DNA of 64,000 nt from an uncultured Bacteroidota bacterium (GCA_902587325.1 CACIKV010000007.1:3531-67530); one strand, 5' to 3'; positions 14,457-28,163 are shown, counted from the stretch's first letter. Program-made: numbers and translations. Notes: generated from the sequence alone by a model not told the origin.

Positions 14457-14573
14457 AATTTTTTGGTTTCTATAAATTTACTAAAACCGTTTGATTAATT
14501 TTTAATTAAAAAAAATATTGTTTAACATCACAAACTGTGAAATTTGATTCAATTAATTATTAAGTTAAAAAAT

Positions 14574-15893: not shown

Positions 15894-17204
15894 ATGGAAG
15901 TAATTTTAATTAAAGGATTTCAATTAATTTTAAGTTTATCAATTCTTGTTTTTCTACATGAATTAGGACATTATATTCCAGCAAAACTTTTTGGAACAAG
16001 AGTAGAAAAGTTTTATTTATTTTTTGATTGGCCATTTTCTGTATTTAAGAAAAAAGTTGGAGATACTGAGTTTGGTGTTGGAGCATTGCCATTGGGCGGA
16101 TATGTTAAAATTTCAGGTATGGTTGATGAAAGTTTTGATACTAAACAGCTGGAAACTGAACCAAAGGATTGGGAATTTAGATCAAAGCCTACTTGGCAAA
16201 GATTAATTATAATGCTTGGCGGTGTAATTATCAACTTTATTTTAGGATTTGTCATTTATATGATGGTAACATTTGTTTGGGGAAAGACCATTGTTACTTA
16301 TGATGATTTAAATTCTGGATTTAAAGTTTCAGAAACAATGAAAGAAATAGGATTTGAAGATGGTGATAAAATTTTAAAAGTTGATGGAACAGAAGTCGAA
16401 AATCAATTAGAAATAGCTATGATGATTGTTTCTAGAGGTGTAGATAATATTGAGGTTTTGCATGATGATGGAACTAGAGATTTAATTGATATTCCCAATG
16501 ATATAGGTCTTAAAATTATTGCTTCTGGCACTTCTCCTTTTACTCCTTTACCTAATTTTGAAGTTGACTCTATTCAAAATCTTTCACCTTCAGCGTCTAG
16601 TAATATAATGGTTGGAGATATAATTGATAAAGCAAATGGATCTAAGATTTATAATTTTGATGATTTAGAAGAAGCTAAAAAAATCAATGCTGATTATGTT
16701 GAGTTAGAATTAATAAGAGGAGAAGATAAAATAACTACAGTAATTCCTTTCTATTCTGATGATAAAAAAATCGGTATTTATCCGCGATACAATTTAGAGG
16801 GAACAACTTTAAGGTATGATTTATTTGAAAGTATAACAAAAGGAGCTGAAACAGCTTACTATACACTAACCGATTATATGAACCAAATGAAATATCTAGC
16901 AAGCTCTGAGGGAGCTTCCCAGCTAGGTGGTTTTGGTACTATTGGGAGTATTTTTCCAGCTCAATGGAACTGGAAAAGATTTTGGGAAATGACGGCTTTT
17001 CTTTCAATAATTCTAGGATTCATGAATGTACTCCCAATACCCGCACTTGATGGGGGTCATGTAATGTTTTTACTTTACGAGATGATTACAGGTAAAAAAC
17101 CTAATGATAAGTTTATGGAATATGCTACAATGACAGGTGTTATTCTTTTAATAGGATTAGTACTTTATGCAAATGGTATGGATATTTTTAGAGCGTTTTC
17201 CTAA
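15894..17204 (+). CDS. rseP: RIP site-2 zinc metalloprotease
   Basis: HELGHY motif, internal PDZ-like region, and C-terminal NVLPIPALDGGH. Confidence 0.9.
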   Translation: MEVILIKGFQLILSLSILVFLHELGHYIPAKLFGTRVEKFYLFFDWPFSVFKKKVGDTEFGVGALPLGGYVKISGMVDESFDTKQLETEPKDWEFRSKPTWQRLIIMLGGVIINFILGFVIYMMVTFVWGKTIVTYDDLNSGFKVSETMKEIGFEDGDKILKVDGTEVENQLEIAMMIVSRGVDNIEVLHDDGTRDLIDIPNDIGLKIIASGTSPFTPLPNFEVDSIQNLSPSASSNIMVGDIIDKANGSKIYNFDDLEEAKKINADYVELELIRGEDKITTVIPFYSDDKKIGIYPRYNLEGTTLRYDLFESITKGAETAYYTLTDYMNQMKYLASSEGASQLGGFGTIGSIFPAQWNWKRFWEMTAFLSIILGFMNVLPIPALDGGHVMFLLYEMITGKKPNDKFMEYATMTGVILLIGLVLYANGMDIFRAFS

Positions 17205-17242
17205 AAATTAATTGATACTTAATATTTGAAATAAAATATAAT

Positions 17243-17250
17243 TATATTTG
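17243..17250 (+). promoter_or_regulatory. Bacteroidota-type -7 box TATATTTG (TAnnTTTG) upstream of tRNA-Asn
   Basis: Exact match to the published -7 consensus, 13 nt before the tRNA 5' end. An upstream TTTG at 17225-17228 sits closer than the usual spacing. Confidence 0.3.
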
Positions 17251-17263
17251 CCCACACTTAAAT

Positions 17264-17337
17264 TCCTCCTTAGCTCAGTTGGTTAGAGCATCTGACTGTT
17301 AATCAGAGGGTCCTTGGTTCGAGCCCAAGAGGGGGAG
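17264..17337 (+). tRNA. tRNA-Asn (anticodon GTT)
   Basis: Hand-folded cloverleaf: acceptor TCCTCCT/AGGGGGA, D stem GCTC/GAGC, anticodon stem TCTGA/TCAGA with loop CTGTTAA, T stem CTTGG/CCAAG with loop TTCGAGC, discriminator G. CCA is not encoded. Confidence 0.9.
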
Positions 17338-17375
17338 CAAGCTAACCGCTACATCACATATTCTTAAAGCCCACT
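17287..17375 (+). repeat. left direct repeat (attL-like): 3' 51 nt of tRNA-Asn plus 38 nt downstream
   Basis: Identical to 27236-27324 except C17347 versus T27296, compared base by base. Confidence 0.9.
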
Positions 17376-17392
17376 CACAGGTGGGTTTTTTC
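17370..17392 (+). terminator. rho-independent terminator after tRNA-Asn
   Basis: Stem CCCAC/GTGGG with loop TCACAG, followed by a T run. Confidence 0.6.
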
Positions 17393-17436
17393 TTAGCCAA
17401 TATTTAAGATGAACATTAAATTAAAGATATAAAAAG

Positions 17437-17457
17437 TTGTCAGTTATTTGTCAGTTT
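17437..17457 (+). repeat. TTGTCAGTTA-TTTGTCAGTTT tandem half-sites (candidate integrase arm-type site)
   Basis: The same 21-mer with 1 mismatch occurs at 27140-27160 across the integrase start codon. Confidence 0.4.
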
Positions 17458-17537
17458 GATCTTTTAGTAGAACTAAACTTGAAAAAACTTGATTATTCAA
17501 GATTGAAAAACTTTGATTAATCAAACATTAATAAAGA

Positions 17538-17603
17538 TTAATTAATTCTTAAGGTTAAAAAAACAAGCGGAATAAATAGTAATAGTAGAATTAATTTTTT
17601 CAT
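17538..17603 (-). pseudogene. truncated 5' fragment of an exported-protein gene (MKKLILLLLFIPLVFLTLRIN*)
   Basis: The first ~42 nt are near-identical to the 5' end of the gene starting at 18156. The reading frame stops after 21 codons. Confidence 0.6.
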
Positions 17604-17616
17604 ATATATAATTTAT

Positions 17617-18156
17617 CTAAATAGTTGATTTAGATTTATTTAAAACAACAATTGATTTTAAAAAAATTTTAAATTCAGACAAAAATGAAGCTGCAGTGTT
17701 CTTTTTTTTTGCACCAAACTGTATCAAAATAACCTTTTTATTAATAATCACATATGACTGAATCAAGTAGAATTGATTTTCTAAAAACAAAGAATCTGAT
17801 ATCATTCCTGGATAACTATCAATTGAAAAGTATGAGTATTTTCTTTCTCCAAAAAAAGGATATTTATTGAGCTTAATTAAATTTCTGTATTCTTCATTAG
17901 TGTAATTATAAAGCTCATCATTTGTGGGAATAGATTTAGTTAAGAAGGTTATTAAAATTTGGTTTTCAGGTGAAAAATTATTTAATACAACCAAACTTTC
18001 TTTTGATTTTGGCTTAATAACTTTAAAACCCTCTGGAATTTTAAACTTTAAATCAATACCATTTGATAAAGGATTATTAATAATCTCATAATAATTATCT
18101 TTTTGCCCAATAGAAACAAGCGGAATAAATAGTAATAGTAGAATTAGTTTTTTCAT
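17617..18156 (-). CDS. hypothetical secreted protein
   Basis: I prefer the ATG at 18156 (MKKLILLLLFIPLVSIGQ signal peptide, ATGA overlap with the upstream stop) over the track start at 18177. Confidence 0.7.
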   Translation of the reverse strand: MKKLILLLLFIPLVSIGQKDNYYEIINNPLSNGIDLKFKIPEGFKVIKPKSKESLVVLNNFSPENQILITFLTKSIPTNDELYNYTNEEYRNLIKLNKYPFFGERKYSYFSIDSYPGMISDSLFLENQFYLIQSYVIINKKVILIQFGAKKKNTAASFLSEFKIFLKSIVVLNKSKSTI

Positions 18157-18512
18157 TTCTTTTTGTTTTGGACACATTTTTTTACATCCAAAGCTCCGTC
18201 ATCAAACATTGATATTTGACCCTGTGGATATACAGAAACTTCTTGAGCAACATCATTTACAGCAAAACAACTTCCACCTGAACCACCTAACGCCCATACA
18301 CCAACTCCTCTGTTTGGTATATCAAGTGCAACGAAATAAACATCGTCAAAGTCTTTAGACTTAATAGCACAAGTCTGATTAAAACCAGTATCACCTTTAA
18401 AGCCTGACATTATTGTACTATACTGTTTTTCTGTTGGTTCTATAAAGTTTTTTGATGGAGCTTCTTCACAACCTAAAAAGACAAAAAATAATATTATGAT
18501 TAGCTTTTTCAT
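18153..18512 (-). CDS. hypothetical small lipoprotein
   Basis: Lipobox FVFLGC. 119 aa with 4 further Cys. Part of a tight operon. Confidence 0.65.
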   Translation of the reverse strand: MKKLIIILFFVFLGCEEAPSKNFIEPTEKQYSTIMSGFKGDTGFNQTCAIKSKDFDDVYFVALDIPNRGVGVWALGGSGGSCFAVNDVAQEVSVYPQGQISMFDDGALDVKKCVQNKKK

Positions 18513-18513
18513 A

Positions 18514-18885
18514 TTAAAATTTAAACTCTGTTATATCACAATTTACGATACTAGATACTTTCGTTTGATTTATACAATCTTTAAACATTGCTTCTATCCA
18601 TACTTCATAATCCGGATAATTTCCAACTCCAAATTTTTTAATATAATCGTAAAAACTTCTATCAATTTTTAAATTAATTTCACCACCAACGCCTGAAGCA
18701 TAAAGAACTGCACCAACTTTATAATTATCAAAGTATTTATTTGACTTAGATATATAATCGTGAAATTGCATTATCAAGGTTATATCTTCATTTTTTTCCA
18801 TTGGCTCATTGTAACTGAAATAATTTTCAGGAAGTTCACCACAACTTAAAATGACAAACAGTAATAGTAGAATTATTTTTTTCAT
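18514..18885 (-). CDS. hypothetical small lipoprotein
   Basis: Lipobox VILSC. 123 aa. 1-nt gap to the next gene. Confidence 0.65.
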   Translation of the reverse strand: MKKIILLLLFVILSCGELPENYFSYNEPMEKNEDITLIMQFHDYISKSNKYFDNYKVGAVLYASGVGGEINLKIDRSFYDYIKKFGVGNYPDYEVWIEAMFKDCINQTKVSSIVNCDITEFKF

Positions 18886-18893
18886 ATTGAAAT

Positions 18894-19517
18894 TTAATTG
18901 AATAACTGTGTAAATACGTTTTTATATCCATCAGCATTAAACTTAAATTTATAATTTGACAGTCCGTATTCTTCTTTTGTTATAACAACTGAAACTTCTC
19001 CTCCAGCTAAAAGAATATTATGCATCTTACTTATATGATTTTTCTTAAAACTAGGGTCAAAATATACTCTTTTTCCTCCCTCATACATTTTGCCTGACAT
19101 TGAGTGTTTTATTCCACTCGAATCTTTGATGAGAATTTCATATTCATCAGTACTATATGCTTTTACAGGACTATTACCTGCATATTCATATAACTGTACT
19201 GCAATATCATCAGCTCCAGAAATTAGGAAATAGACATTTAAATTTGAATTAGTTGTTGCAGAGTTGCTAAATGTTCCTTTGATATAATAATCGTGAGCAA
19301 TATATCCTTCATCTGTTGGGTCACCAAAATCATCAACATAATACTTTATAGACCAAATTCCAGTTCCTTCAACTAATTTATTATCAACTTGAGTTTCATA
19401 ATTCCACGTTCCGTCGCTATTTAAAACAACCTTTTTTCCATTTTCATCGACAGTTGCAATTATTTGCGAAAAAGAAAAAAATGGAATTAATAGTAATAGT
19501 AGAATTAGTTTTTTCAT
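18894..19517 (-). CDS. hypothetical secreted protein
   Basis: Signal peptide MKKLILLLLLIPFFSFSQ. 207 aa. Confidence 0.65.
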   Translation of the reverse strand: MKKLILLLLLIPFFSFSQIIATVDENGKKVVLNSDGTWNYETQVDNKLVEGTGIWSIKYYVDDFGDPTDEGYIAHDYYIKGTFSNSATTNSNLNVYFLISGADDIAVQLYEYAGNSPVKAYSTDEYEILIKDSSGIKHSMSGKMYEGGKRVYFDPSFKKNHISKMHNILLAGGEVSVVITKEEYGLSNYKFKFNADGYKNVFTQLFN

Positions 19518-19519
19518 AA

Positions 19520-20044
19520 TTAAAGTGCGGAATCTGAATAATCTACCTCTTTAGCATCCTCATACTTGCCAATAACAATATTTAAATAAATATTTTTTCC
19601 ATATGGTGGTGTTCCAATATATATGTTTTTGCCTTTTTCTTTGTGTGAAAGTATGTAGGTTTCACCAGACGCATATTCAAGATAATTATCTCCAGATTTA
19701 GTATCAATATCATCATTTTCATAGCCCTGGCTGACTAGAAGGCGTACTAAATCTTTAAAAACAAGCTTTACTTGGCTTTCAGGCAATCCGTAAACACCTC
19801 CGCCCACTGGGTTGAGTTTTACAAATTGCAATTTCCCATTTGCATCGTATGTATTATTTTGATGGTAATGTCTCCAATAATAACTTCCTAATGTAATTTG
19901 TTTGTATTTATCTTTATTGGATTTAGCCTCTTTAACAGCTTCTTTTTTGGTCATTCCAGTATTTAATCCTAAAATTAAATTTTGAGAATCTTGACTAATC
20001 GATACAAGTGGAATAAGTAATACTAGAATAAATATTTTTTTCAT
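19520..20044 (-). CDS. hypothetical secreted protein
   Basis: Signal peptide MKKIFILVLLIPLVSISQ. 174 aa. First gene of the five-gene minus-strand string. Confidence 0.65.
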   Translation of the reverse strand: MKKIFILVLLIPLVSISQDSQNLILGLNTGMTKKEAVKEAKSNKDKYKQITLGSYYWRHYHQNNTYDANGKLQFVKLNPVGGGVYGLPESQVKLVFKDLVRLLVSQGYENDDIDTKSGDNYLEYASGETYILSHKEKGKNIYIGTPPYGKNIYLNIVIGKYEDAKEVDYSDSAL

Positions 20045-20264
20045 AATTAGTTATTTATCAACCTAATATATGAAATTATCCCTTTTTTATAGTGTTACAT
20101 TTTGTAACATTTTTAGAAACCTTACTGCGTTTAGGCATACTGAGTTTAATGATACTTTGTTTGCCAATAGTGATTATAGTGTGTTCACTTTTGTTCACTT
20201 TTATATAACTTGAAATTAAGTATAATACAAATTTTTACTATTTTAATATTTAAATAATATAAAT

Positions 20265-20708
20265 ATGAAATCATTGTATATAATTAATGCGAAAGGTAAT
20301 TCTCTTGTAAAGGCAGTTGAGCGTGGCTCAATAGAAATTTTTGATCAGGGTGTAAAATACAAATGGTATCAATTTGGATTTTCTGATGAAGTATTTATTC
20401 CAATGGATGAAATAACTGCGTTTGATATTAAAAAATTTGGATTTGGACTTCAAACAAATCTCAAACTTGATACATCTACAAAAACTCGTGTGCTTGCAAA
20501 TGTTAAATCTGAAGAAGCAAAAATAGCTATTGAAATTTTTACAAAGGCACGCTCTGATTTCAGAAATTCCCAACAAAACAATGTTGGTAATCAAAAGGAA
20601 AATTCTAACGATTTAACAGACCAATTGTTAAAACTTAGCGAGTTAAAAGATAAAGGGATATTGACTCAGGAAGAATTTGACAATCAAAAGAAAAAGTTGC
20701 TGTCTTAA
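20265..20708 (+). CDS. SHOCT-domain protein with PH-like N-terminal domain
   Basis: The C-terminus LLKLSELKDKGILTQEEFDNQKKKLL matches the SHOCT motif. No signal peptide. Confidence 0.6.
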   Translation: MKSLYIINAKGNSLVKAVERGSIEIFDQGVKYKWYQFGFSDEVFIPMDEITAFDIKKFGFGLQTNLKLDTSTKTRVLANVKSEEAKIAIEIFTKARSDFRNSQQNNVGNQKENSNDLTDQLLKLSELKDKGILTQEEFDNQKKKLLS

Positions 20709-20791
20709 TAAAAAAATTAAATCTGTTCCTGATTAATAATAGATGAATTAATTAATTCTTCAAAGATTTAGATGGGTTTAATAGAAAAGAA

Positions 20792-21346
20792 TTAGCTCTT
20801 GCAAGATTTTCCCCAGTTATCAATTTCCTCTCTTCCACATCCAAACTTAGACAAAGAAGTAGAATATCCTTTATTGTAATAAACTGCTTGAATAACATTA
20901 TCACATTTTGTGCAATATTTTCTTATGTCATACTTTAATTTAGACTTTTCCATTTCTTCCATAGCAATAGCTTTAATCATATAGACCAAAGACATACTTT
21001 CATCCCAATTTTTCTTTAATTCATTAAATTTTTCAATATCATTATTTTTTGTTTGATAAATTTTTTCAAGTATTTGCATAAAAACATTAACTACATCAAT
21101 AGACTCTTTCAATACATTTGTAAAATCATCTTTACCGAATGTAACCATCATTCTTTCCCAATATAAGTTTGTTGTTATACTTTTTTCTGTTGTTGGGCTT
21201 ATTTCAATTGCTTTTGTATAATAATAATGAGCACCTATTAAATCTTTTGAATCTCTAGCCTTAACAGCATTATCTACGTAATCCTCCCAGGTTTGAGAGA
21301 ATCCTAGATTAACAAAAAATATACCTATAAAAAACAAATACTTCAT
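20792..21346 (-). CDS. secreted TPR-like protein, Cys-rich C-terminus
   Basis: Signal peptide. TPR-like helix AHYYYTKAIEISP. The start overlaps the upstream stop by 1 nt (TAATG). Confidence 0.55.
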   Translation of the reverse strand: MKYLFFIGIFFVNLGFSQTWEDYVDNAVKARDSKDLIGAHYYYTKAIEISPTTEKSITTNLYWERMMVTFGKDDFTNVLKESIDVVNVFMQILEKIYQTKNNDIEKFNELKKNWDESMSLVYMIKAIAMEEMEKSKLKYDIRKYCTKCDNVIQAVYYNKGYSTSLSKFGCGREEIDNWGKSCKS

Positions 21347-22797
21347 TAATCACAATATAATGAAATTTGATTATACTTGGACCAACCTAATCTTACAGAT
21401 GCCCTAATATCTTCACAGGCACTGGAATTTTGTCTTAAACTTCTTTTAACACTCGCCCTGTATGCATAAGCTCTACCATAATTTGGGTTTAAAATAATTG
21501 CCATATTTAAATCTTTCATTGAAAGTGATCTATATCCAGATCCGTAACTTAAATTATAACAAACTGCCCTGTTAAAGTACCATTCTGAATTATTTGGATC
21601 AATCTCAATTAGTTTAGTAAAATCTTTAATTGCGTCTGTTAAATCCCAATCACTCATATCAGCTTCAAAAGGAGTTCCATTATCTCTGTACGCAAGACCT
21701 CTATATTCATAAGCTTTTAAATTTTCAGGATCTAATTCAATTGCAATACTTAAATCTGTTATTGACTCGTAGTAGTTTTTATTTCTGTATTTATAATATC
21801 CTCTTGTAAAATATGCTGTTGAGTTATAGGGGTCAGATTGAATTGCTTTATTTAAATCCAGCATAACATCGGGTGTTCCATATATAACCCTTCCTCTAAG
21901 ATCTGTATAAGTTTTAGTTATTTGGTTCTCATAATCTCTAACTAAAGCTCTCAATACGAAGTATTCTGATCTTGGATTAATTTTAATCGATTTACTATAA
22001 TCTTCAATAGCTCCTCTAAAATCTTTAAACTCTTCTTTTATACCAGCTCTTTTAGCATAATAGAATTCATTGTTAGGGTTAAAATCTATTGCTCTATTAT
22101 ATAAGATTAAAGCTGCAGCCATATTTCCACTTCTTTCTTTTTCAATTCCATTGTAATAGTATTCATCAGCAACTTTAATTTCATAATCACCAGTAATCAC
22201 AATATTCTCATTCCCTAAAGCTTTAGAGTAGCCTGTTTTAATAGCGGCTAACCTCTTGTTTTTACTTGGATGAGTTGAATAAGTGTCATCATCATTTGTT
22301 GTGATTAAGTCAATTGCTGCAATTGTTTGATTTAATGATGCTCCTAATTTGGCTAAAACAAAACCTGCAAAATTATCTGCTTCTAACTCTTCCTGTCTTT
22401 GTTTAGCTAATGAGTTATCATCTAATATTGGAGCTAGAAGATAATCTCTTGTATGGCCATTTATATGGTGTCCTACTTCGTGGGCTAATATAAAAGTGCT
22501 TGACCAATCATTAGTGAGTTCAGATATTTTTTTCATAAACTCTCCATCATATAATATATATCTCTCCCCTTTATATGTTACAGCAAGTGCATTGAATATA
22601 TTGTCACAAGGTGTTAGTGTAAAATTTCTAGAGGCTCCAATTACAGATAAAATTTTGTCTAAAGCTTCATTTGCTTCTTTGTCAGATGTGAAAGCACTTA
22701 CTGCTCTTTTGTATTCAAAACATAATTCAATACCCTCCTTTATCTGCCCAAAAGAAATAAGTGGAGCAAATAGCAATAATAGAATTAGTTTTTTCAT
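21346..22797 (-). CDS. periplasmic M48-like (BepA-like) zinc metalloprotease fused to TPR repeats
   Basis: Signal peptide MKKLILLLLFAPLISFGQ. Motifs ILAHEVGHHINGH, EELEADNFAG and STHPSKNKR, then about 6 TPR units (AALILYNRAIDFNPNN...). An M78/ImmA-like zincin cannot be excluded without an HMM. Confidence 0.65.
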   Translation of the reverse strand: MKKLILLLLFAPLISFGQIKEGIELCFEYKRAVSAFTSDKEANEALDKILSVIGASRNFTLTPCDNIFNALAVTYKGERYILYDGEFMKKISELTNDWSSTFILAHEVGHHINGHTRDYLLAPILDDNSLAKQRQEELEADNFAGFVLAKLGASLNQTIAAIDLITTNDDDTYSTHPSKNKRLAAIKTGYSKALGNENIVITGDYEIKVADEYYYNGIEKERSGNMAAALILYNRAIDFNPNNEFYYAKRAGIKEEFKDFRGAIEDYSKSIKINPRSEYFVLRALVRDYENQITKTYTDLRGRVIYGTPDVMLDLNKAIQSDPYNSTAYFTRGYYKYRNKNYYESITDLSIAIELDPENLKAYEYRGLAYRDNGTPFEADMSDWDLTDAIKDFTKLIEIDPNNSEWYFNRAVCYNLSYGSGYRSLSMKDLNMAIILNPNYGRAYAYRASVKRSLRQNSSACEDIRASVRLGWSKYNQISLYCD

Positions 22798-22958
22798 TTA
22801 CATAAATATAATTGAAAAAAGATTGATTAATCAATTTAATAACTCATACGTTTCGTTGAAAACTAAACTTGAATCTAAAAAATAAAGCTTGTAACTTGAC
22901 CAATGTAAGAAGATTCTTTCTTAATAATCGTTGTTATCAATCTCTGTATTTTATTAAT

Positions 22959-22978
22959 AAAAAGCGCCCCACAGGCGC
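22959..22978 (-). terminator. rho-independent terminator (minus strand)
   Basis: GC stem GCGCC/GGCGC (22964-22968 / 22974-22978) with a 5-nt loop. The A run 22959-22963 is a T run on the minus strand. Confidence 0.5.
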
Positions 22979-23147
22979 ATATATGTATATAACACTAGAA
23001 TAAAATATTTTTAAGCTTGTATACAGGATAGCTATGCTTAAGATTTAGTGATATATGTGCCCTTCGGGCAGATGTTTATGAAATGAATTTATAGTTGTAT
23101 TTTAAGCTAGAGTTATTAATTAAAATTTCTTTTTATCTAAATACTAA

Positions 23148-23300
23148 TTATAAATAATGAAAACAACTAGTGAGTTGCTTTGGTATTCCGTCTTGATGGA
23201 AGTTTCCGTTTTTGATCCAATTATATGCTATTCTTTTTGAATTAATAAAATCAACTGCTTGTTTGTTATTAAGTATATAATACCCTTTGGGGTGTTTTCC
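23148..23300 (-). pseudogene. possible excisionase/AlpA-like HTH (HTH_17) gene relic without a start codon
   Basis: The open frame reads ...KGKHPKGYYILNNKQAVDFINSKRIAYNWIKNGNFHQDGIPKQLTSCFHYL*. The S-x4-Y-x-W-I-K-x-G spacing fits MerR-type Xis HTH as I recall it. No ATG, GTG or TTG occurs in frame after the upstream stop. Confidence 0.3.
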
Positions 23301-23327
23301 TTTTGTTGTTGTATTTAGTTTGTAATT
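23301..23327 (+). repeat. 27-nt exact direct repeat, copy 1 (TTTTGTTGTTGTATTTAGTTTGTAATT)
   Basis: Identical to 23954-23980. The two copies bracket ORF 23326-23940. Confidence 0.9.
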
Positions 23328-23940
23328 ATTCTTGAGGAGACCCCCATCCTGACCACCATCTATCTATATTAAATTCACTTTTTTTCATAAAATAGGAACA
23401 ATATTTTGCATCATAGTATCGCTCATATTTTTCATCATTATTTTCACAAATATCAATTTGTTTTTTTTCTGCATCTGTCAAAAAATTAGCTTCGTTAATA
23501 TCATCAATTTCATATTCGTAGTGTCCTTTTGTTATAATGGACAAAATTTCTTCTCCATCACCTTCAACAATACTTTCTATAAAATCTATGCTGTGATGAG
23601 GATGTTGCCAAATCCCACCTTTACCATCTTTTTCAAAATTCTGATAAGAAAACCTAGTGCATTTCATCATTAGGTATTTTTCTCCAAAACAATTTTCTAA
23701 AAATTCCGTAATCCCCATATAATCATCTAGATTTGAATTTAGACCAAACTCTTCACCATTGAAGAATAAATCATCACCGCCAAAGGTATCATAACCTTCA
23801 TTTAATTCCTCCAGTGTTGTCTCTAAATCCTCGTCGAACTCAATTCCATCTTTTGGCATTGAGTTATATAATTTTTCAATTGTAATATTTGAATCTATAC
23901 CACAAATTGATGTAACAATTGAGTCTTTTGTAAATTTCAT
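23326..23940 (-). CDS. hypothetical highly acidic cytoplasmic protein
   Basis: 204 aa, no signal peptide. By my count 46 Asp/Glu versus about 18 Lys/Arg. No family recognised. Confidence 0.6.
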   Translation of the reverse strand: MKFTKDSIVTSICGIDSNITIEKLYNSMPKDGIEFDEDLETTLEELNEGYDTFGGDDLFFNGEEFGLNSNLDDYMGITEFLENCFGEKYLMMKCTRFSYQNFEKDGKGGIWQHPHHSIDFIESIVEGDGEEILSIITKGHYEYEIDDINEANFLTDAEKKQIDICENNDEKYERYYDAKYCSYFMKKSEFNIDRWWSGWGSPQE

Positions 23941-23953
23941 AACTATATTATCT

Positions 23954-23980
23954 TTTTGTTGTTGTATTTAGTTTGTAATT
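23954..23980 (+). repeat. 27-nt exact direct repeat, copy 2
   Basis: See 23301-23327. Confidence 0.9.
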
Positions 23981-23986
23981 TACAAT

Positions 23987-24045
23987 TTAATGAATTTTAA
24001 GAATACGCATATCTTCCTCTGTTAATTCTGTTAGATAATTTCTTT
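23987..24045 (-). pseudogene. relic of a second integrase gene 3' end (..NYLTELTEEDMRILKIH*)
   Basis: Minus-strand translation parallels the intact integrase C-terminus ..TYLRGLELTELTDEDMPILL*. The nucleotide core 24007-24033 matches 26120-26146 at 26 of 27 positions. Confidence 0.55.
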
Positions 24046-24055
24046 AACTTTAAGT

Positions 24056-26119
24056 ATGCTTAAGCGTATAGTTGTTTTATTGTTTTTTTCATTAAACATC
24101 CATTATTCTCAAAATCCTTCAGATATTTTTGATAATGCATATTCAGAGGTTCTTGATAATGGTGGTTACAACCGGGGACTTATAACATCTTATGAACCTT
24201 ATGAACCTTACAGTCGTAATTTATATGAGGTTTCATTTGAAAAACTAAGTGAAAAAAATAATTACCCTTTTTTTCAAAAAAGGATATATGAAAAAATATT
24301 TGATCTAAAAATTAAGCCATTCATTGAATACATTCCTTCCAAAGATTCTGAGTACTTTACAAAAAGTTTAGTTTTCGAAGATTTAAATAAACCTAGAATT
24401 CTTGGCGGTAAACTTTTTAACCTTGATCCTTTCAGAAAAATTATTATTGGTGAAAATACTTACGAACGTCTTTATGAATATTTATTTTTTATTGAGGGTA
24501 AAGATCGGATTTCTGATAATTTTCTAAATGAAATTCCTTTTTGTTTGGATGATCCCGAATGTAATCGTAATCCAACAACTAGAGAGGATATAATATCAAG
24601 ATATAGAGGGAAAATATTTAGATTTTGCAAAAAAAACAATTGTACAATTTATTTACAATCAGAAATACTTGATGCTCTAAATCAAGAATATATATATGGT
24701 GATACCTATTTTATTGATTTGAATAAAGTTAACTCGAAACTTAATTCAACTAATTCCTATGAAAGTAATGAAATTAAATTTAGATCTACAGACCCTTTTA
24801 GTGAAGGAAATTTTGAAGATTATAAATTACTTTTTTATGACGACAACTGGATTAGAAATGTTATTGATAAATTGTATGGAGAAAAAATAAAATTTTCCTT
24901 AAATAATGATTTTGAGTTATTCTTTAATTTAGTGAATGATGCAACTTATAATGATTTTGATTGGACTGTGGATGTGGCTTTAGGTTTTAAAGAACCAGGT
25001 GTTTCAAAAAGTTGGAATAGTTTAATATCGAAGCGTGGAAATCTAAATCCATATCCCGAAATAGACTCAAGAAAAAATCATATTAGCTTTAAAATAAAAC
25101 AAGTTAAAGGTCAATATGCAGGAGTAGAAAAAACCTTATTGTATGTTAAAAAATATAAAAGAGGAATAAAAGTTATAGATCAAGCCTTCAATATTAAAAA
25201 CTATTTAAAAGTAAACCCATATGGACAACCCGAACCTTATGATAATCTCATCAAGGTTACAAGAATAAATGATGTTATTTACTTTTCAATAGAAGATGAT
25301 GTATTGTATAAAACAGAAATAGAGGAATTTGAAAATGATAAAATTTTAATAACTCACAAAAGCATATATGAGGGAGAAAAAGATTATTTAAAGAAACAAA
25401 ATATTTCAAAACTACTTACCGTTAATTTTTCAAATCAATTAATAAAACCAGAAATTATAATAAATGAAGATATAGAAAAACCATCTTGGAATGGTTCTGG
25501 AAGTGGATTTTTCATATCTAAATTTGGACATATTACCACAAACTACCACGTTATTAAGGATGCAAAAACTATTGAGATAAGCTATAATAATGGTAATAAT
25601 ATAATTAAATACCCTGCTGAAATAATTCAATCGGATCCTGCTAACGATCTAGCAATCTTAAAAGTCAAAGATTTAAACTTCAAAGAATTCGATGAGTTAC
25701 CTTACAATATAAAAACAAGAAGTTCAGATGTTGGTTCTGATGTTTTTGCCTTAGGATATCCGATGGCTCTGAGTGGAATGGGCGAAGAGATAAAATTTAC
25801 AGATGGAAAGATTAGTTCAAAAACTGGATTTAATGGCGACATCAGGACTTATCAAACCACTGCGCCAATTCAATCAGGAAATAGCGGTGGACCCTTATTT
25901 GATTACAATGGCAATTTGATTGGTATTAATTCATCAAAAATTTCATCTCAAGTTGCTGATAATGTTTCTTATTCAATTAAATCTTCTTATTTGAATAACC
26001 TAATGGATGTACTGCCTGAAAATATTTCTTTGCCTAGCGATAAAACTCTGAGCGGAAAGCCATTAACAGAAATAATAAAAATATTATCTAAATACGTTGT
26101 TCTAATTAAAGTAAAATAG
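24056..26119 (+). CDS. secreted trypsin-like (S1C, DegP-type catalytic domain) serine protease with ~470-aa unknown N-terminal region, no PDZ
   Basis: Signal peptide. C-terminal GSGFFISKFGHITTNYHVI (His), NDLAILKV (Asp) and GNSGGPLFD (Ser). Confidence 0.75.
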   Translation: MLKRIVVLLFFSLNIHYSQNPSDIFDNAYSEVLDNGGYNRGLITSYEPYEPYSRNLYEVSFEKLSEKNNYPFFQKRIYEKIFDLKIKPFIEYIPSKDSEYFTKSLVFEDLNKPRILGGKLFNLDPFRKIIIGENTYERLYEYLFFIEGKDRISDNFLNEIPFCLDDPECNRNPTTREDIISRYRGKIFRFCKKNNCTIYLQSEILDALNQEYIYGDTYFIDLNKVNSKLNSTNSYESNEIKFRSTDPFSEGNFEDYKLLFYDDNWIRNVIDKLYGEKIKFSLNNDFELFFNLVNDATYNDFDWTVDVALGFKEPGVSKSWNSLISKRGNLNPYPEIDSRKNHISFKIKQVKGQYAGVEKTLLYVKKYKRGIKVIDQAFNIKNYLKVNPYGQPEPYDNLIKVTRINDVIYFSIEDDVLYKTEIEEFENDKILITHKSIYEGEKDYLKKQNISKLLTVNFSNQLIKPEIIINEDIEKPSWNGSGSGFFISKFGHITTNYHVIKDAKTIEISYNNGNNIIKYPAEIIQSDPANDLAILKVKDLNFKEFDELPYNIKTRSSDVGSDVFALGYPMALSGMGEEIKFTDGKISSKTGFNGDIRTYQTTAPIQSGNSGGPLFDYNGNLIGINSSKISSQVADNVSYSIKSSYLNNLMDVLPENISLPSDKTLSGKPLTEIIKILSKYVVLIKVK

Positions 26120-27146
26120 GCATATCTTCGTCTGTTAATTCTGTTAATTCTAATCCACGTAAGTAGGTTAAACTTACTTGCAAACTAGAGTGTCCCATAG
26201 CTCTTTGAAGCTTGGTTAATGATCCAGTTCTTTTAAAGATTTCTATCGCTCCTGAGTGTCTAAATGAATAGATTGTTACATCTTTATCTATCTCTGAATT
26301 AAGCTTCTTAAAACGCTTCCAAAGTGTACTAAAATAACCTCTATTATATGGCCTTTCTTTACCTGTAAAGATGTTTATATTATTATGTGATTTCTCAAGG
26401 CCTAAATAGGGCACAGGTACGATTCTATTACGCTTAGACTTCACTTTATTTCCAGACAAACTAATGCGCGATAAATCTTCATTAAAATCACCCCACTTAA
26501 GCAATCTTATTTCTTGATGAGGCCTCAATAAACAACAATAAGTAAGAACACAGCATAGATACAAGTTCTCATTAAACATCTTTATTCTTTCAAGCAGATC
26601 TTTAACGTTATCTACAGGCTTGTGTAACTTTTCTATTTGCTTCTTACTTTTGAGTTTAGACCTTTCTATATCAAATCCATTTTCTTTGAGATGATTAACA
26701 AGTACGTTTACGTGTCTGCGTGTTGTATTATAGCTTGTCGCATTATCATACTGTAGAGACAAAGAATCTATAAAATCTACACTTATATTTTTTTTACTAA
26801 TAAGCTCTTTACGAAACCTAACTACAATTTTTTCTAGAGCTCTTTTATACAATAACGATATAGGTTCGTTAAGCTTTTTGTCTATAAGTAAATCAAATTG
26901 TTCAAGCTTGTTATATACTCGCATAAACGAATAATTATTGTTAGAGAGAAAGTCGTAAACTTCTTTTGCAAGCTTTAATGCTTCTGTACGTCTATGCTTA
27001 ATTGGAAAGGTATTAGGAGCAGTAGAAGAATTTATTCTTCGTCCACTAAACATCCTTACACGCTTGTTGTTTAACTTAAAGTCTATCCAGTATTTACCGT
27101 ATTTGTCTTTACATACTTTAGGGTATGATATGCTATTTTTTGTCAC
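26106..27146 (-). CDS. tyrosine-type site-specific recombinase/integrase
   Basis: GTG start. N-terminal arm-binding-like KYGKYWIDFKLNNKRVR. C-terminal YSFRHSGAIE...GHSSLQVSLTYLRG (R-H-R-Y type catalytic region). Adjacent to the right direct repeat. Confidence 0.85.
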   Translation of the reverse strand: MTKNSISYPKVCKDKYGKYWIDFKLNNKRVRMFSGRRINSSTAPNTFPIKHRRTEALKLAKEVYDFLSNNNYSFMRVYNKLEQFDLLIDKKLNEPISLLYKRALEKIVVRFRKELISKKNISVDFIDSLSLQYDNATSYNTTRRHVNVLVNHLKENGFDIERSKLKSKKQIEKLHKPVDNVKDLLERIKMFNENLYLCCVLTYCCLLRPHQEIRLLKWGDFNEDLSRISLSGNKVKSKRNRIVPVPYLGLEKSHNNINIFTGKERPYNRGYFSTLWKRFKKLNSEIDKDVTIYSFRHSGAIEIFKRTGSLTKLQRAMGHSSLQVSLTYLRGLELTELTDEDMPILL

Positions 27147-27160
27147 TTATTTGTCAGTTT
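27140..27160 (+). repeat. TTGTCACTTA-TTTGTCAGTTT tandem half-sites overlapping the integrase start
   Basis: 20 of 21 positions match 17437-17457. Confidence 0.4.
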
Positions 27161-27218
27161 AGTTAATACATATTTCTCAATGTTTAACTTAATATATTGA
27201 CTATTAGTATGTAACAAT

Positions 27219-27286
27219 TACTTCTTAGCGAGGTAAGCATCTGACTGTTAATCAGAGGGTCCTTGGTTCGAGCCCAAGAGGGGGAG
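27219..27286 (+). pseudogene. decayed tRNA-Asn copy (D-arm deletion); its 3' 51 nt form the right att-like repeat
   Basis: The 5' part TACTTCTTAGCGAGGTA aligns with TCCTCCTTAGCTCAGTTGGTTAG with 2 acceptor mismatches and 6 nt missing from the D arm. From 27236 onward it is identical to the intact gene. Confidence 0.6.
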
Positions 27287-27324
27287 CAAGCTAACTGCTA
27301 CATCACATATTCTTAAAGCCCACT
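27236..27324 (+). repeat. right direct repeat (attR-like)
   Basis: See 17287-17375. Confidence 0.9.
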
Positions 27325-27342
27325 ATAAAGTGGGTTTTTTCT
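27319..27342 (+). terminator. rho-independent terminator after the tRNA relic
   Basis: Stem CCCACT/AGTGGG with loop ATAA, followed by a T run. Confidence 0.55.
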
Positions 27343-27475
27343 TTATCATTATTTATATTGAACGTAAATTAAAAGTATAAAATTCTTGGCAACTATATGG
27401 CAATTGAAAAAACTTGATTATTCAAGATTGAAAAACATTGATTAATCAAACATTAATAAAGATTAATTAATTTTT

Positions 27476-27529
27476 TTAGGTTAAAAAAACAAGTGGAATA
27501 AATTGTAATAGTAGAATTAGTTTTTTCAT
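27476..27529 (-). pseudogene. truncated signal-peptide gene fragment (MKKLILLLQFIPLVFLT*)
   Basis: Homologous to 17538-17603. Its ATG overlaps the stop of ORF 27526-27732 (ATGA). Confidence 0.55.
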
Positions 27530-27732
27530 TTTTTCTTTTTGTTAAATAATTGTTCAAATTCATCCCCTCTACAAAAGAATAAAGCTATAAGAAAAACAAT
27601 TATAAATTTTCCTAGTCGTTTACCATCCCAGTCAAGAATATTAAAGTGCATTTCAAAAGGAAAGAGATCAATTGCAATAACTAGATATACAATAAAGGCA
27701 GATGAAAAAAGAAATTGAGCTAGCTTTTTCAC
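27526..27732 (-). CDS. hypothetical small membrane protein (2 TM)
   Basis: 68 aa. GTG start preceded by GGAGGA. No family recognised. Confidence 0.4.
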   Translation of the reverse strand: MKKLAQFLFSSAFIVYLVIAIDLFPFEMHFNILDWDGKRLGKFIIVFLIALFFCRGDEFEQLFNKKKK

Positions 27733-27968: not shown

Positions 27969-28163
27969 ATGAACACAGGAAAAGTAAAATTTTTTAATGT
28001 AACCAAAGGTTTTGGTTTTATTAAAGACAATGAATCGGGCGAGGAGTATTTCGTTCACTCAACAGGGTTAATTGACAGAATCAAAGAAGACGATGATGTT
28101 GAATATGAATTGAAAGAGGGAAAGAAAGGGATGAATGCATTTAACGTTAAAATCAGTAGTTAA
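27969..28163 (+). CDS. cold-shock domain protein (CspA family)
   Basis: GKVKFFNVTKGFGFI (RNP1-like) and EYFVH (RNP2-like). 64 aa. Confidence 0.9.
   Translation: MNTGKVKFFNVTKGFGFIKDNESGEEYFVHSTGLIDRIKEDDDVEYELKEGKKGMNAFNVKISS

Follow-up and report, generated by a model that had tools for sequence, protein, structure and literature searches.

The DNA analysed here, called the window, is a stretch of 64,000 nt from an uncultured Bacteroidota bacterium (GCA_902587325.1 CACIKV010000007.1:3531-67530), and the host is a marine flavobacterium. Features at the locus are given below; L numbers denote related sequences from other genomes and metagenomes.

17264-17338, plus strand: intact tRNA-Asn(GTT) called by ARAGORN; in all relatives, too, this gene comes after RseP
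17287-17375, plus: attL copy of the repeat, 89 nt, made of 52 nt of the tRNA 3' part and 37 nt of the island P' arm
17291-17307, plus: anticodon stem-loop TCTGA-CTGTTAA-TCAGA, the putative crossover region (attR equivalent 27240-27256)
17339-17603, plus: island P' arm, with 89.7% identity to the corresponding part of L110, a circular or tandem sister element
17366-17389: tRNA terminator hairpin in the P' arm (folding, -12.5 kcal/mol, z = -4.6)
17437-17453: arm-type repeat TTGTCAGTTATTTGTCA in the P' arm, from motif counts
17479-17545: conserved module of the P' arm, two TTGAAAAAC repeats and the palindrome TTGATTAATCAA
17538-17603, minus: stump of a signal-peptide gene, 21 aa, in the P' arm
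17617-20044, minus: five small cargo genes (186, 119, 123, 207 and 174 aa) with N-terminal signal/lipoprotein peptides, no family match
20265-20708, plus: SHOCT-domain protein, 147 aa (PF09851, E = 3.9e-9)
20792-21346, minus: secreted 184-aa protein, no family match
21346-22797, minus: secreted zinc metallopeptidase (HExxH; M48/U49-like) with TPR repeats, 483 aa (PF01435, TPR families)
23326-23940, minus: acidic 204-aa protein without signal peptide, no function assigned
23987-24033, minus: stump of a second integrase, last 15 codons (ending ELTEEDMRILKIH) and stop, 92-96% identical to the 3' ends/spacers of L108, L109 and L117
24056-26119, plus: secreted 687-aa protein with C-terminal trypsin/HtrA-like serine protease domain (PF13365, E = 2e-26; NCBIfam DegP-like)
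26106-27146, minus: inward-facing tyrosine recombinase, 346 aa (PF00589; phrog_1, E = 6e-19)
27140-27235, plus: island P arm; arm-type repeat TTGTCACTTATTTGTCA at 27140-27156, degenerate 5' half of tRNA-Asn at 27219-27235
27236-27324, plus: attR copy of the repeat, made of the displaced chromosomal tRNA-Asn 3' fragment (27236-27287) and 37 nt of an older-island stump
27288-27529, plus: P' arm stump of an older related island, outside the present island, also in the empty sites L003, L007, L018, L019 and L022
27315-27338: terminator in the older-island stump
27386-27402: arm-type variant TTGGCAACTATATGGCA in the older-island stump
27404-27470: conserved module in the older-island stump
27476-27529, minus: stump of an M48-TPR-like gene, 17 aa, in the older-island stump; the full-length gene is in L023

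The two copies of the repeat agreed at 88 of 89 positions and differed only between 17347 (C) and 27296 (T), just as the first-pass annotation had stated. It had divided the repeat into 51 nt of tRNA and 38 nt downstream; the position over the tRNA 3' part and the following sequence was right, but the ARAGORN call gave 52 and 37 nt, with the repeat beginning just 5' of the anticodon stem. The 64 kb contained exactly two copies of a 23-nt piece of the repeat, where 0 would be expected. Homology of the copies ran past 89 nt with 83-92% identity and a 24-nt indel, to about 17603 and 27529; in both copies this is the ATG of a signal-peptide ORF that is truncated. The stump of an older related island is the source of this weaker homology and of the 37 nt that follow the tRNA. 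These last 37 nt of the repeat are homology of the island's own arm with the stump, which lies outside attR and is found in all the empty sites too. The recombination core is the tRNA part only, and the full 89 nt overstates it.

The tRNA-Asn gene at 17264-17338 would have a chromosomal 5' part, up to the anticodon arm, and an island-supplied 3' part. C at 17347 would be the island allele, and T at 27296 is shared with the closest empty sites, L003 and L007. The right-hand repeat is preceded by a degenerate 17-nt 5' half of tRNA-Asn (27219-27235), whose D-loop has lost 6 nt, and ARAGORN called a degenerate tRNA-Asn of 69 nt at 27219-27287. The intact tDNA lies at one end and its cognate 3' fragment at the other, both on the plus strand. 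A 3-mismatch search of the window detected no further tRNA-Asn 3' fragment that could be the far end of the older island. The left terminator hairpin was missed in a consensus terminator scan, and both copies formed a hairpin when folded.

The recombinase gene had been placed just inside the right copy; it is intact, and its start lies 89 nt from the right repeat. The start codon is GTG and is overlapped by the arm-type repeat TTGTCACTTATTTGTCA. The match to PF00589 scored only 36 bits, and PHROG integrase families matched as well. The catalytic residues R208, K236, R296 (Y-x-x-R), H319 and Y328 do not vary across the integrase and its family (alignment, 15 homologues). The best solved relative was an archaeal XerA-like protein (38 bits), and the family is very distant from characterised ones. 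An AlphaFold model from the 15-sequence alignment had a pLDDT of 54.7 and did not resolve the catalytic domain; three beta strands and a helix, predicted at moderate confidence, suggest an N-terminal arm-binding domain. Public data contained 2930 homologues; most were on short contigs, which probably reflects assembly breaks at such islands. An integrase profile scan of IMG/VR returned only matches of 31-32% identity and so did not connect the integrase with known phages. The island showed no recognisable excisionase or HTH gene.

The stump of the second integrase, 47 nt long, was detected through DNA comparison and not by blastx, which revealed no other scorable integrase remnant in the whole window against 120 integrase homologues. 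The spacer downstream of this stump extends to the start of the 204-aa gene, and a 33%-identical counterpart of that gene follows the integrase in L115. The 687-aa protease gene is flanked on both sides by a 32-nt direct repeat (24002-24033 and 26115-26146), which is formed by the integrase ends. The island is composite, that is, a fusion product.

The cargo encodes nearly exclusively secreted proteins: small lipoproteins, the M48-TPR metallopeptidase and the trypsin-like protease. Seven cargo proteins received no function from PHROGs or NCBIfam, and PHROGs matches were limited to the integrase, the SHOCT protein and generic peptidase/TPR families. PADLOC found no defence system in the cargo, only domain-level protease similarity to defence proteins. 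The earlier reading that capsid, terminase, replication and conjugation genes are missing agreed with Pfam, PHROGs and PADLOC. These three gave no match to primase, helicase, polymerase or excisionase among the 11 ORFs; relaxase, coupling protein and type IV secretion genes had no Pfam match, and an oriT may still be present. No copies of the cargo occurred elsewhere in the window. The "gene relics" reported before were reduced to two short stumps (23987-24033 and 17538-17603), while the remaining cargo consists of intact ORFs. GC content was equal to that of the host, giving no island signal, and tetranucleotide usage was only marginally atypical; composition therefore lends little support to a foreign origin.

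Fourteen independent contigs (L001-L010, L018, L019, L022 and L024) span the site without the island, with flanks 92-99.8% identical. In relatives, which could have carried the same genes without the integrase, RseP-tRNA-Asn was joined to the csp side with neither integrase nor cargo. Precise excision predicts a distance of 816 nt between the RseP stop and the csp start, and 5 of the 14 contigs match this length (816-820 nt in L003, L007, L018, L019 and L022). The older-island stump is shortened in other empty sites. The island is absent from close relatives and present in the window, with the boundary exactly at the repeat. So the claim of an island integrated at tRNA-Asn between attL and attR was borne out, and we consider it very probable that this 9,949-bp integrative island entered the chromosome via site-specific recombination by its own tyrosine recombinase. 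The tRNA-Asn locus is a hotspot of serial integration, and the island landed beside the stump of an older one. The suggestion that it is probably decaying was not upheld for the mobility parts: a full-length integrase with all catalytic residues, both att copies and matched arm-type repeats are intact.

The locus also varies without any integrase, and relatives show five or more arrangements on the right side of the tRNA: two shortened forms of the stump, its full 172-nt form, a ThuA gene in L008 and an M48-TPR-like gene in L023. Together with the host-like composition and six occurrences of conserved signal-peptide-coding gene starts, which could act as recombination points, this would suit a flexible region turned over by homologous recombination between strains or by deletion, in which the integrase is a passenger or dead and the repeat marks an old event. 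We regard this explanation as unlikely, because the presence/absence edge falls exactly at the att repeat, the mobility parts are all intact, and a sister element with contiguous attP and without chromosomal flanks was found in two samples.

This sister element (L110/L114) has an integrase about 90% identical to that of the window and was recovered as circularly permuted 4.5-kb contigs from two metagenomes. L110 has a terminal overlap of 127 nt, and L114, from a different sample, is its circular permutation with 100% identity; such contigs could represent a free circle or a tandem array. The attP of the window island in circular form would be about 320-500 bp, in which a copy of the tRNA-Asn 3' part is enclosed by the P arm (27140-27235) and the P' arm (from 17339 to about 17603). 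This predicted attP is colinear with L110 (94.25% over 400 nt), where it is contiguous; an exact-pattern search of metagenome contigs gave 0 matches to the attP junction of the window island itself. Nearly identical P arms lie upstream of the integrases in L108, L110, L111 and L114.

One 17-nt tandem-repeat motif is common to both inner ends of the island, and the arm motif TTGKCANNTATWTGKCA has exactly 3 occurrences in the 64 kb, where 0.11 would be expected. Comparable motif pairs, co-varying with the integrase, were present in 16 of 22 complete related islands, and the TTGGCAACTATATGGCA variant was found on both arms of L014-type islands. The attP of lambda contains arm-type and core-type sites, with arm repeats distinct from the core on both arms. 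The island is similar in having short direct repeats, putative arm-type sites, on each arm; they lie between tens of nt and about 100 nt away from the crossover region, and one set overlaps the int gene start.

A degraded prophage, or a phage satellite packaged through a helper phage, seems very improbable. The size (4.5-11 kb), the tRNA integration and the inward-facing integrase resemble satellites and tycheposons, and a circular or tandem form was recovered in metagenomes. But Pfam and PHROGs revealed no capsid, terminase, primase or repressor, the integrases in IMG/VR are so distant, and the 4.5-kb sister element codes for the integrase and three secreted proteins only.

The only public contig with the exact integrase, from a single cell and 100% identical to window 16106-27195, stops at 27195, 40 nt before attR. 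The link from integrase through attR to csp in the source genome was taken from the window itself and from identical P-arm-to-fragment junctions in independent contigs. Concatenation of the window at 27195/27196 was rejected, because independent contigs are continuous there. An assembly or scaffolding artefact at this junction, or a local tandem duplication of the tRNA region without any mobile element (the homology of about 325 nt is longer than a simple att core), is hardly credible, since the sequence over 27195/27196 is nearly identical in the independent L108, L110, L111 and L114, the spacing of 88-89 nt from integrase start to fragment recurs in L014, L015, L108-L111 and L116, the entire 9.9 kb is missing in relatives, and the older-island stump, with a different arm-motif variant, accounts for the extended homology.

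For integration by its own recombinase, we propose that the integrase bound the arm-type repeats of both arms and the symmetric anticodon stem (TGA-N7-TCA), and that strand exchange took place inside or beside the 7-nt anticodon loop. The working tRNA would then consist of the chromosomal 5' part and the island-borne 3' part and terminator, and the original 3' part would have been displaced 9.9 kb, to beside the integrase gene. In relatives, the shortest 3'-type fragments begin at TGACT, 5'-type fragments end at raw tRNA position 43-57, and T-stem alleles are exchanged between attL and attR (L014 vs L015/L017). As the cargo is without transfer or replication genes, movement from cell to cell must use other means; transformation, vesicles and phage particles are candidate routes.

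The island is an ordinary, already known type of element, a tRNA-gene island with a tyrosine integrase. Islander islands use a tyrosine integrase, sit in tRNA or tmRNA genes, and have an attP centred on the anticodon and a fragment of the tDNA 3' end; crossover centred on the anticodon arm is their commonest class (2083 of 3919 islands), and tandem and serial integrations at a single tDNA are known among them (PMC4383910). The window island shares the integrase gene inside the island, the crossover centred on the anticodon arm, and a tRNA gene split and then restored by the island, the regenerated gene and displaced 3' fragment marking the ends. Of the features that define Islander islands, an integrase with catalytic residues, intact tDNA with cognate fragment, and presence/absence polymorphism were found; as to a further one, excision as a circle with restored attP, the attP junction of this island had no match, and the contiguous attP of the sister element may come from a circle or from a tandem array. 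The window island differs in that the integrase adjoins the displaced fragment and not the intact tRNA, the integrase family is very distant, and part of the repeat is homology with the older stump.

The 10K genomic island of Riemerella anatipestifer targets tRNA-Arg and has a perfect 53-bp repeat, with the integrase adjoining the tRNA; integrase and a short attP suffice for integration, and it is excised spontaneously as a circle without making phage (PMC6764341). Both islands are about 10 kb, belong to Flavobacteriaceae, have tRNA-linked direct repeats and vary in presence among strains. The likeness drawn here is one of description, and the window island differs in target (tRNA-Asn), in its 88/89 repeat and in the integrase adjoining the fragment. 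Tycheposons of Prochlorococcus and other marine bacteria have a lineage-specific integrase clade and shared replication/mobility hallmark genes; their integrases cluster by target tRNA, and relatives were reported in Proteobacteria, not Bacteroidota (bioRxiv 10.1101/2020.12.28.424599). Like them, the island is a small cargo element of streamlined marine bacteria, rare per genome, with an inward-facing tyrosine recombinase at one end, a full and a partial tRNA as flanks, and serial integration, with degraded remnants staying behind in tRNA-proximal islands. Unlike in tycheposons, the hallmark genes were not found in the island, and integrases of its family with >90% identity occur at different tRNAs.

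The layout of RseP, tRNA-Asn, cargo, inward-facing integrase, 89 nt and tRNA fragment was also found in another genus (L014-L017), and species-representative genomes contained about 30 complete islands of 3-11 kb. Among 82 relatives, integrases >90% identical occupied different tRNAs; target and orientation were the same in 47% of integrase pairs at 85-95% identity and in 62% at 95-100%. The complete islands L072 (Asn, 3' half) and L084 (Ala, 5' half) have integrases 94.6% identical, and in L043 and L044 the attR is a hybrid, Asn-type in its 5' strand and anticodon but Met-type in its 3' part. The integrase family appears to switch between tRNA genes unusually easily. We tentatively suggest, at somewhat less than even chances, a large unnamed family of minimal integrase-and-cargo elements in marine Bacteroidota, in which the attP-borne tRNA copy, and not the integrase, sets the tRNA target and the duplicated half. 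Recognition by the enzyme would be confined to its own arm repeats and the anticodon stem's symmetric TGA-N7-TCA, and a swap of the core module would give the element a new target.

The island is a precisely mapped gene gain in an uncultured, streamlined marine flavobacterium, and it can serve as an example with a clean empty site, a predicted attP and cargo of almost exclusively secreted proteins and peptidases. Its integrase family, with about 2,900 homologues, seems to be responsible for small, variable islands at several tRNA genes across marine Bacteroidota. If the attP-borne tRNA copy does set the target, the family would provide a naturally reprogrammable site-specific integrase for a phylum short of genetic tools, and a mechanism by which tRNA-proximal flexible islands accrete and are reshuffled.

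The island lies between two copies of a repeat at tRNA-Asn(GTT), and the features at its ends and in its flanks are as follows.

Features at the ends of the island and in the flanks (window positions)
15894-17204, RseP, M50 protease, left flank
17264-17338, plus strand, tRNA-Asn(GTT), ARAGORN
17287-17375, left repeat copy (attL)
17437-17453, TTGKCANNTATWTGKCA copy inside the island, 62 nt past the left repeat
26106-27146, minus strand, tyrosine recombinase ORF
27140-27156, TTGKCANNTATWTGKCA copy overlapping the integrase start codon
27219-27287, degenerate tRNA-Asn of 69 nt, ARAGORN
27236-27324, right repeat copy (attR)
27386-27402, TTGKCANNTATWTGKCA copy in the variant TTGGCAACTATATGGCA, outside attR
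27969-28163, csp, right flank

The repeat pair with a single C/T mismatch, read by the first-pass annotation, was confirmed: the copies are identical at 88 of 89 positions, and the sole difference is C 17347 vs T 27296. A 23-nt stretch from the repeat has exactly two occurrences in the window (0 expected). The repeat starts four bases ahead of the anticodon stem and takes in the 3'-terminal 52 nt of the tRNA as called by ARAGORN and 37 nt past it. Past the 89 nt, homology of the two copies goes on at 83-92% identity with one 24-nt indel, up to about 17603 and 27529; in both copies it stops where a truncated signal-peptide ORF on the minus strand has its ATG. Immediately left of the right-hand repeat, 17 nt form a degenerate 5' half of tRNA-Asn from which 6 nt of the D-loop are missing.

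Exact matches to the csp protein and to the 502-aa bPH_2 protein served to retrieve relatives from public assemblies. They were marine single-cell genomes and Tara or other metagenome scaffolds, with flanks 92-99.8% identical to the window. Fourteen independent contigs cross the site (L001-L010, L018, L019, L022 and L024), and RseP-tRNA-Asn was joined to the csp side in 14/14, with neither integrase nor cargo present at the site in any of them. The distance from RseP stop to csp start is 816-820 nt in L003, L007, L018, L019 and L022, and 816 nt is predicted once one repeat copy and everything between the copies are deleted; L003 has three substitutions and no indel relative to this predicted excision product. 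In public assemblies only one contig, from GCA_902617995.1, was found to have the exact integrase. Presence or absence of the island is a polymorphism whose boundaries fall at the repeat. The empty sites support the first-pass annotation in its view of an integrated tyrosine-integrase island at tRNA-Asn, and relatives which lack the integrase and keep the same genes at the locus, named there as the opposing case, were not what the 14 contigs showed.

Another indel polymorphism lies 2.7 kb to the left of the tRNA: a 487-aa gene with no Pfam hit lies between a TPR gene and an Fe2+ transport gene in three relatives (L005 5243-6706, L008 4424-5887, L010 5023-6486), and the window (corresponding point 14544-14547) and its closest relatives do not have it. 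The single-cell genome AG-895-C20, source of the empty site L005, also has an 11-kb island of the same family at tRNA-Arg(TCT) (L073, CABYWQ010000001.1, 9829-20905; integrase 48% identical), so one genome can hold family members at other tRNAs.

The contig from GCA_902617995.1 (CACMYM010000001.1, 44.3 kb) matches window 16106-27195 at 100% identity and stops at 27195, 40 nt short of attR. An artificial junction at 27195/27196 was rejected, because the independent contigs L108, L110, L111 and L114 run straight across the equivalent of 27195 in near-identical sequence and the distance from integrase start to tRNA fragment is constant (88-89 nt in the window, L014, L015, L108-L111 and L116). We therefore consider the integrase-attR adjacency to be genuine.

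The ORF at 26106-27146 was taken by the first-pass annotation as a tyrosine recombinase gene, which is borne out by matches to PF00589 and phrog_1 and by the catalytic residues R208, K236, R296, H319 and Y328, which do not vary when the protein is aligned with 14 homologues of 314-350 aa. There were 2930 homologues at E < 1e-5, for the most part on short marine contigs. In species-representative genomes a scan identified 276 relatives, and in about 30 cases the island is complete, with a length of 3-11 kb and tRNA-derived repeats at its ends. The structure model is poor overall (pLDDT 54.7), and its three N-terminal beta strands and helix (pLDDT 60-81) would fit an arm-binding domain without proving it.

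There are exactly three copies of the motif TTGKCANNTATWTGKCA in the 64 kb (0.11 expected). In 16/22 complete related islands a comparable tandem motif was found both around the integrase start and on the inner flank of the intact tRNA, and the motif itself varies by island (TGCCAA, TGTCAA, TGTCTGTCAAA and others). This layout is that of a lambda-type attP with putative arm-type binding sites. The P' arm gives the rebuilt tRNA a terminator hairpin (-12.5 kcal/mol, z = -4.6). A conserved P'-arm module, in which a palindrome (CTTGATTATTCAAG, TTGATTAATCAA) follows each of two TTGAAAAAC repeats, lies at 17479-17545 and 27404-27470, and inverted at 22803-22835; L110, the circular sister element, has it too, as does the end of L115. 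The module may bind an accessory or host factor.

The sister element L110 came from the metagenome scan, with 4648 nt and an exact 127-nt terminal overlap, and L114, which came from another sample, has the same sequence circularly permuted (100% identity). The 4.5-kb unit encodes an integrase about 90% identical to that of the window and three secreted proteins, and holds P arm, tRNA-Asn 3' part and P' arm in one contiguous stretch. The predicted attP of the window island is colinear with this stretch at 94.25% over 400 nt, and the alignment takes in the TTGTCAG-type repeat and a 24-nt segment missing from the chromosomal stump. Because the shared core is below assembler word size, junction-spanning reads must exist, so the L110/L114 element is either a free circle or a tandem array. 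The island had been described as probably decaying; no decay was seen in its mobility parts.

The crossover can be placed from the alleles. The closest empty sites share T 27296, and we infer C 17347 to be the island allele, so the crossover would lie left of 17347. The loci L014-L017, from another genus, have integrases 61% identical, the same architecture and the same RseP-tRNA-Asn locus with different cargo. Among their contigs two T-stem alleles are swapped between attL and attR, thus the crossover would be 5' of the T stem. L015 and L017 also have a second, shorter tRNA-Asn 3'-end piece (GAGCCCAAGAGGGGGAGC) about 100-150 nt beyond the attR fragment, followed by native downstream sequence, which we take as evidence of two successive integrations at this locus.

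The closest relatives hold the third motif copy and about 200 nt around it, and other relatives hold progressively shorter versions. In L014-L017 the homologous sequence (ACCGCTACATCACAYATT, terminator, then a TTGGCAAC-type repeat) lies inside the island beside attL, and the true chromosomal sequence past the displaced fragment differs from it. In L111, whose integrase is 95% identical to that of the window, the integrase adjoins a tRNA-Asn fragment and then the other, unrelated downstream sequence as in L014-L017. We conclude that the 37 nt past the tRNA and the degraded homology beyond are the P' arm of an older island of the same family, decayed in the lineage of the window. The "empty" sites are not virgin. 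We further conclude that the recombination core is the tRNA part of the repeat alone; of the 89-nt boundary proposed earlier, the position at the repeat stands and the length of the att core does not.

Right of the tRNA, near-identical strains have at one fixed start codon a ThuA gene (L008 8733-9763), an M48-TPR-like gene (L023 3-880) or a 17-aa stump alone (window, within 27476-27732). The stump, 27476-27529, is the start of the M48-TPR-like gene, which in L023 is full length as far as the contig reaches and 73% identical to the M48-TPR protein of the island; the ThuA gene in L008 uses the same start codon. The ATG of this variable gene overlaps the stop of a 68-aa ORF (ATGA), so the gene appears to be coupled in translation to a conserved small operon (43-aa/68-aa) that runs towards the tRNA. 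The right flank also holds two small ORFs, a nitroreductase and bPH_2 proteins.

Eleven ORFs lie between the repeats, integrase included.

Cargo between the repeats
five small proteins with signal or lipoprotein peptides, without family match
SHOCT protein
secreted 184-aa protein
secreted M48/U49-like zinc peptidase fused to TPR repeats
acidic 204-aa protein
secreted 687-aa protein with trypsin/HtrA-like domain

A second integrase gene has left its final 15 codons and stop at 23987-24033 (minus strand), and the spacer past this stump is the same as that past the integrase in L108, L109 and L117 (92-96% identity). A 32-nt direct repeat, 24002-24033 and 26115-26146, brackets the protease gene. 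The island is composite; fusion of two tandem islands with deletion of the inner integrase and att junction would fit, and so would insertion of the protease gene at the integrase 3' end. Gene relics had been reported in the interval, and this holds for the integrase stump and a 21-aa stump in the P' arm, with no other clear relic.

Six copies of a 71-nt gene start for MKKLILLLLFIPLVS-type signal peptides, 69-82% identical in DNA, were found at 17544-17614, 18097-18167, 19458-19528, 19985-20055, 22738-22808 and 27470-27540. Truncations and gene replacements at the island locus begin right after this sequence, which may be a recombination point; the dull alternative is likeness from shared codon bias.

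GC content is flat in the window (about 28%). Among 9.9-kb stretches of the window, the island has the most atypical tetranucleotide use, though the departure is slight (0.118 vs median 0.090).

PADLOC, PHROGs and NCBIfam added nothing specific for the island ORFs, and no phage, replication or conjugation gene was found among them, in line with the earlier reading of no capsid, terminase, replication or conjugation genes; a prophage, satellite or conjugative element was rejected on this ground. Tycheposons have ecology, size, inward-facing integrase and serial integration in common with the window island, but they are defined by hallmark replication genes, of which the island has none, and their integrases cluster by tRNA, which this family does not; none was reported in Bacteroidota (bioRxiv 10.1101/2020.12.28.424599). 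The tycheposon assignment was rejected on these two differences. The island agrees with the Islander definition (PMC4383910) in its integrase, in the intact tRNA with a cognate fragment at the other end and in its presence or absence among relatives, so every feature of the island itself is of a known kind, and we filed it as a tDNA-integrating genomic island. A 10-kb tRNA-Arg island of Riemerella excises on its own, and shows that integrase and a short attP can suffice for integration in Flavobacteriaceae (PMC6764341).

Among relatives with upstream sequence, 82 had a piece of tRNA ahead of the integrase start, at a distance of 46-171 nt (46-124 nt except two). The shortest 3'-type pieces start at TGACT, which is the inner stem and first loop bases, and the 5'-type pieces extend to raw tRNA position 43-57. 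Under a single mechanism for both types, exchange would be within TGA-N7-TCA of the anticodon arm, common to Asn, Met, Ala(GGC) and His tRNAs in this sample.

The tRNA 5' part (positions 1 to 43-57) adjoins the integrase on the same strand in 14/82 relatives (L031, L034, L036, L038, L039, L042, L046, L055, L064, L066, L084, L087, L092 and L098), and 8 more 5'-typed loci have a whole or nearly whole tRNA beside the integrase. As judged from this arrangement, the element must supply the 5' half of the rebuilt tRNA, and presumably its promoter also. The Islander database has 3760 islands with 3' fragments and 159 with 5' fragments (of 3919), and 2083 with anticodon-centred attP (PMC4383910). Defence cargo is also moved by this integrase family: a 7.4-kb island in L013 (10001-17232), flanked by two copies of tRNA-His and bounded by an integrase with 70% identity, encodes a PD-(D/E)XK protein and has a restriction-modification gene of MmeI type.

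Integrase protein and target with orientation were only loosely tied among the 82 relatives.

Integrase pairs with the same target and orientation
95-100% identical: 62%
85-95% identical: 47%
below 85% identity: about 15%, the background level

Two complete islands, L072 (Asn, 3' half) and L084 (Ala, 5' half), have integrases that share 94.6% identity. The P arms of L076 and L095 are near-identical up to the anticodon, and go on as Met in L076 and Asn in L095. In L043 (9860-9915) and L044 (9820-9915) the attR is hybrid: the 5' strand of the anticodon stem is of Asn type, with anticodon GTT, and the 3' part is of Met type, while the far end has an intact tRNA-Met. These sites look like fossils of an Asn to Met target switch. 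We read the three cases as probable traces of target switches through core-module swap, to which homogenisation of integrase genes between elements is the alternative. This target plasticity at the level of the family is the one lead worth following.
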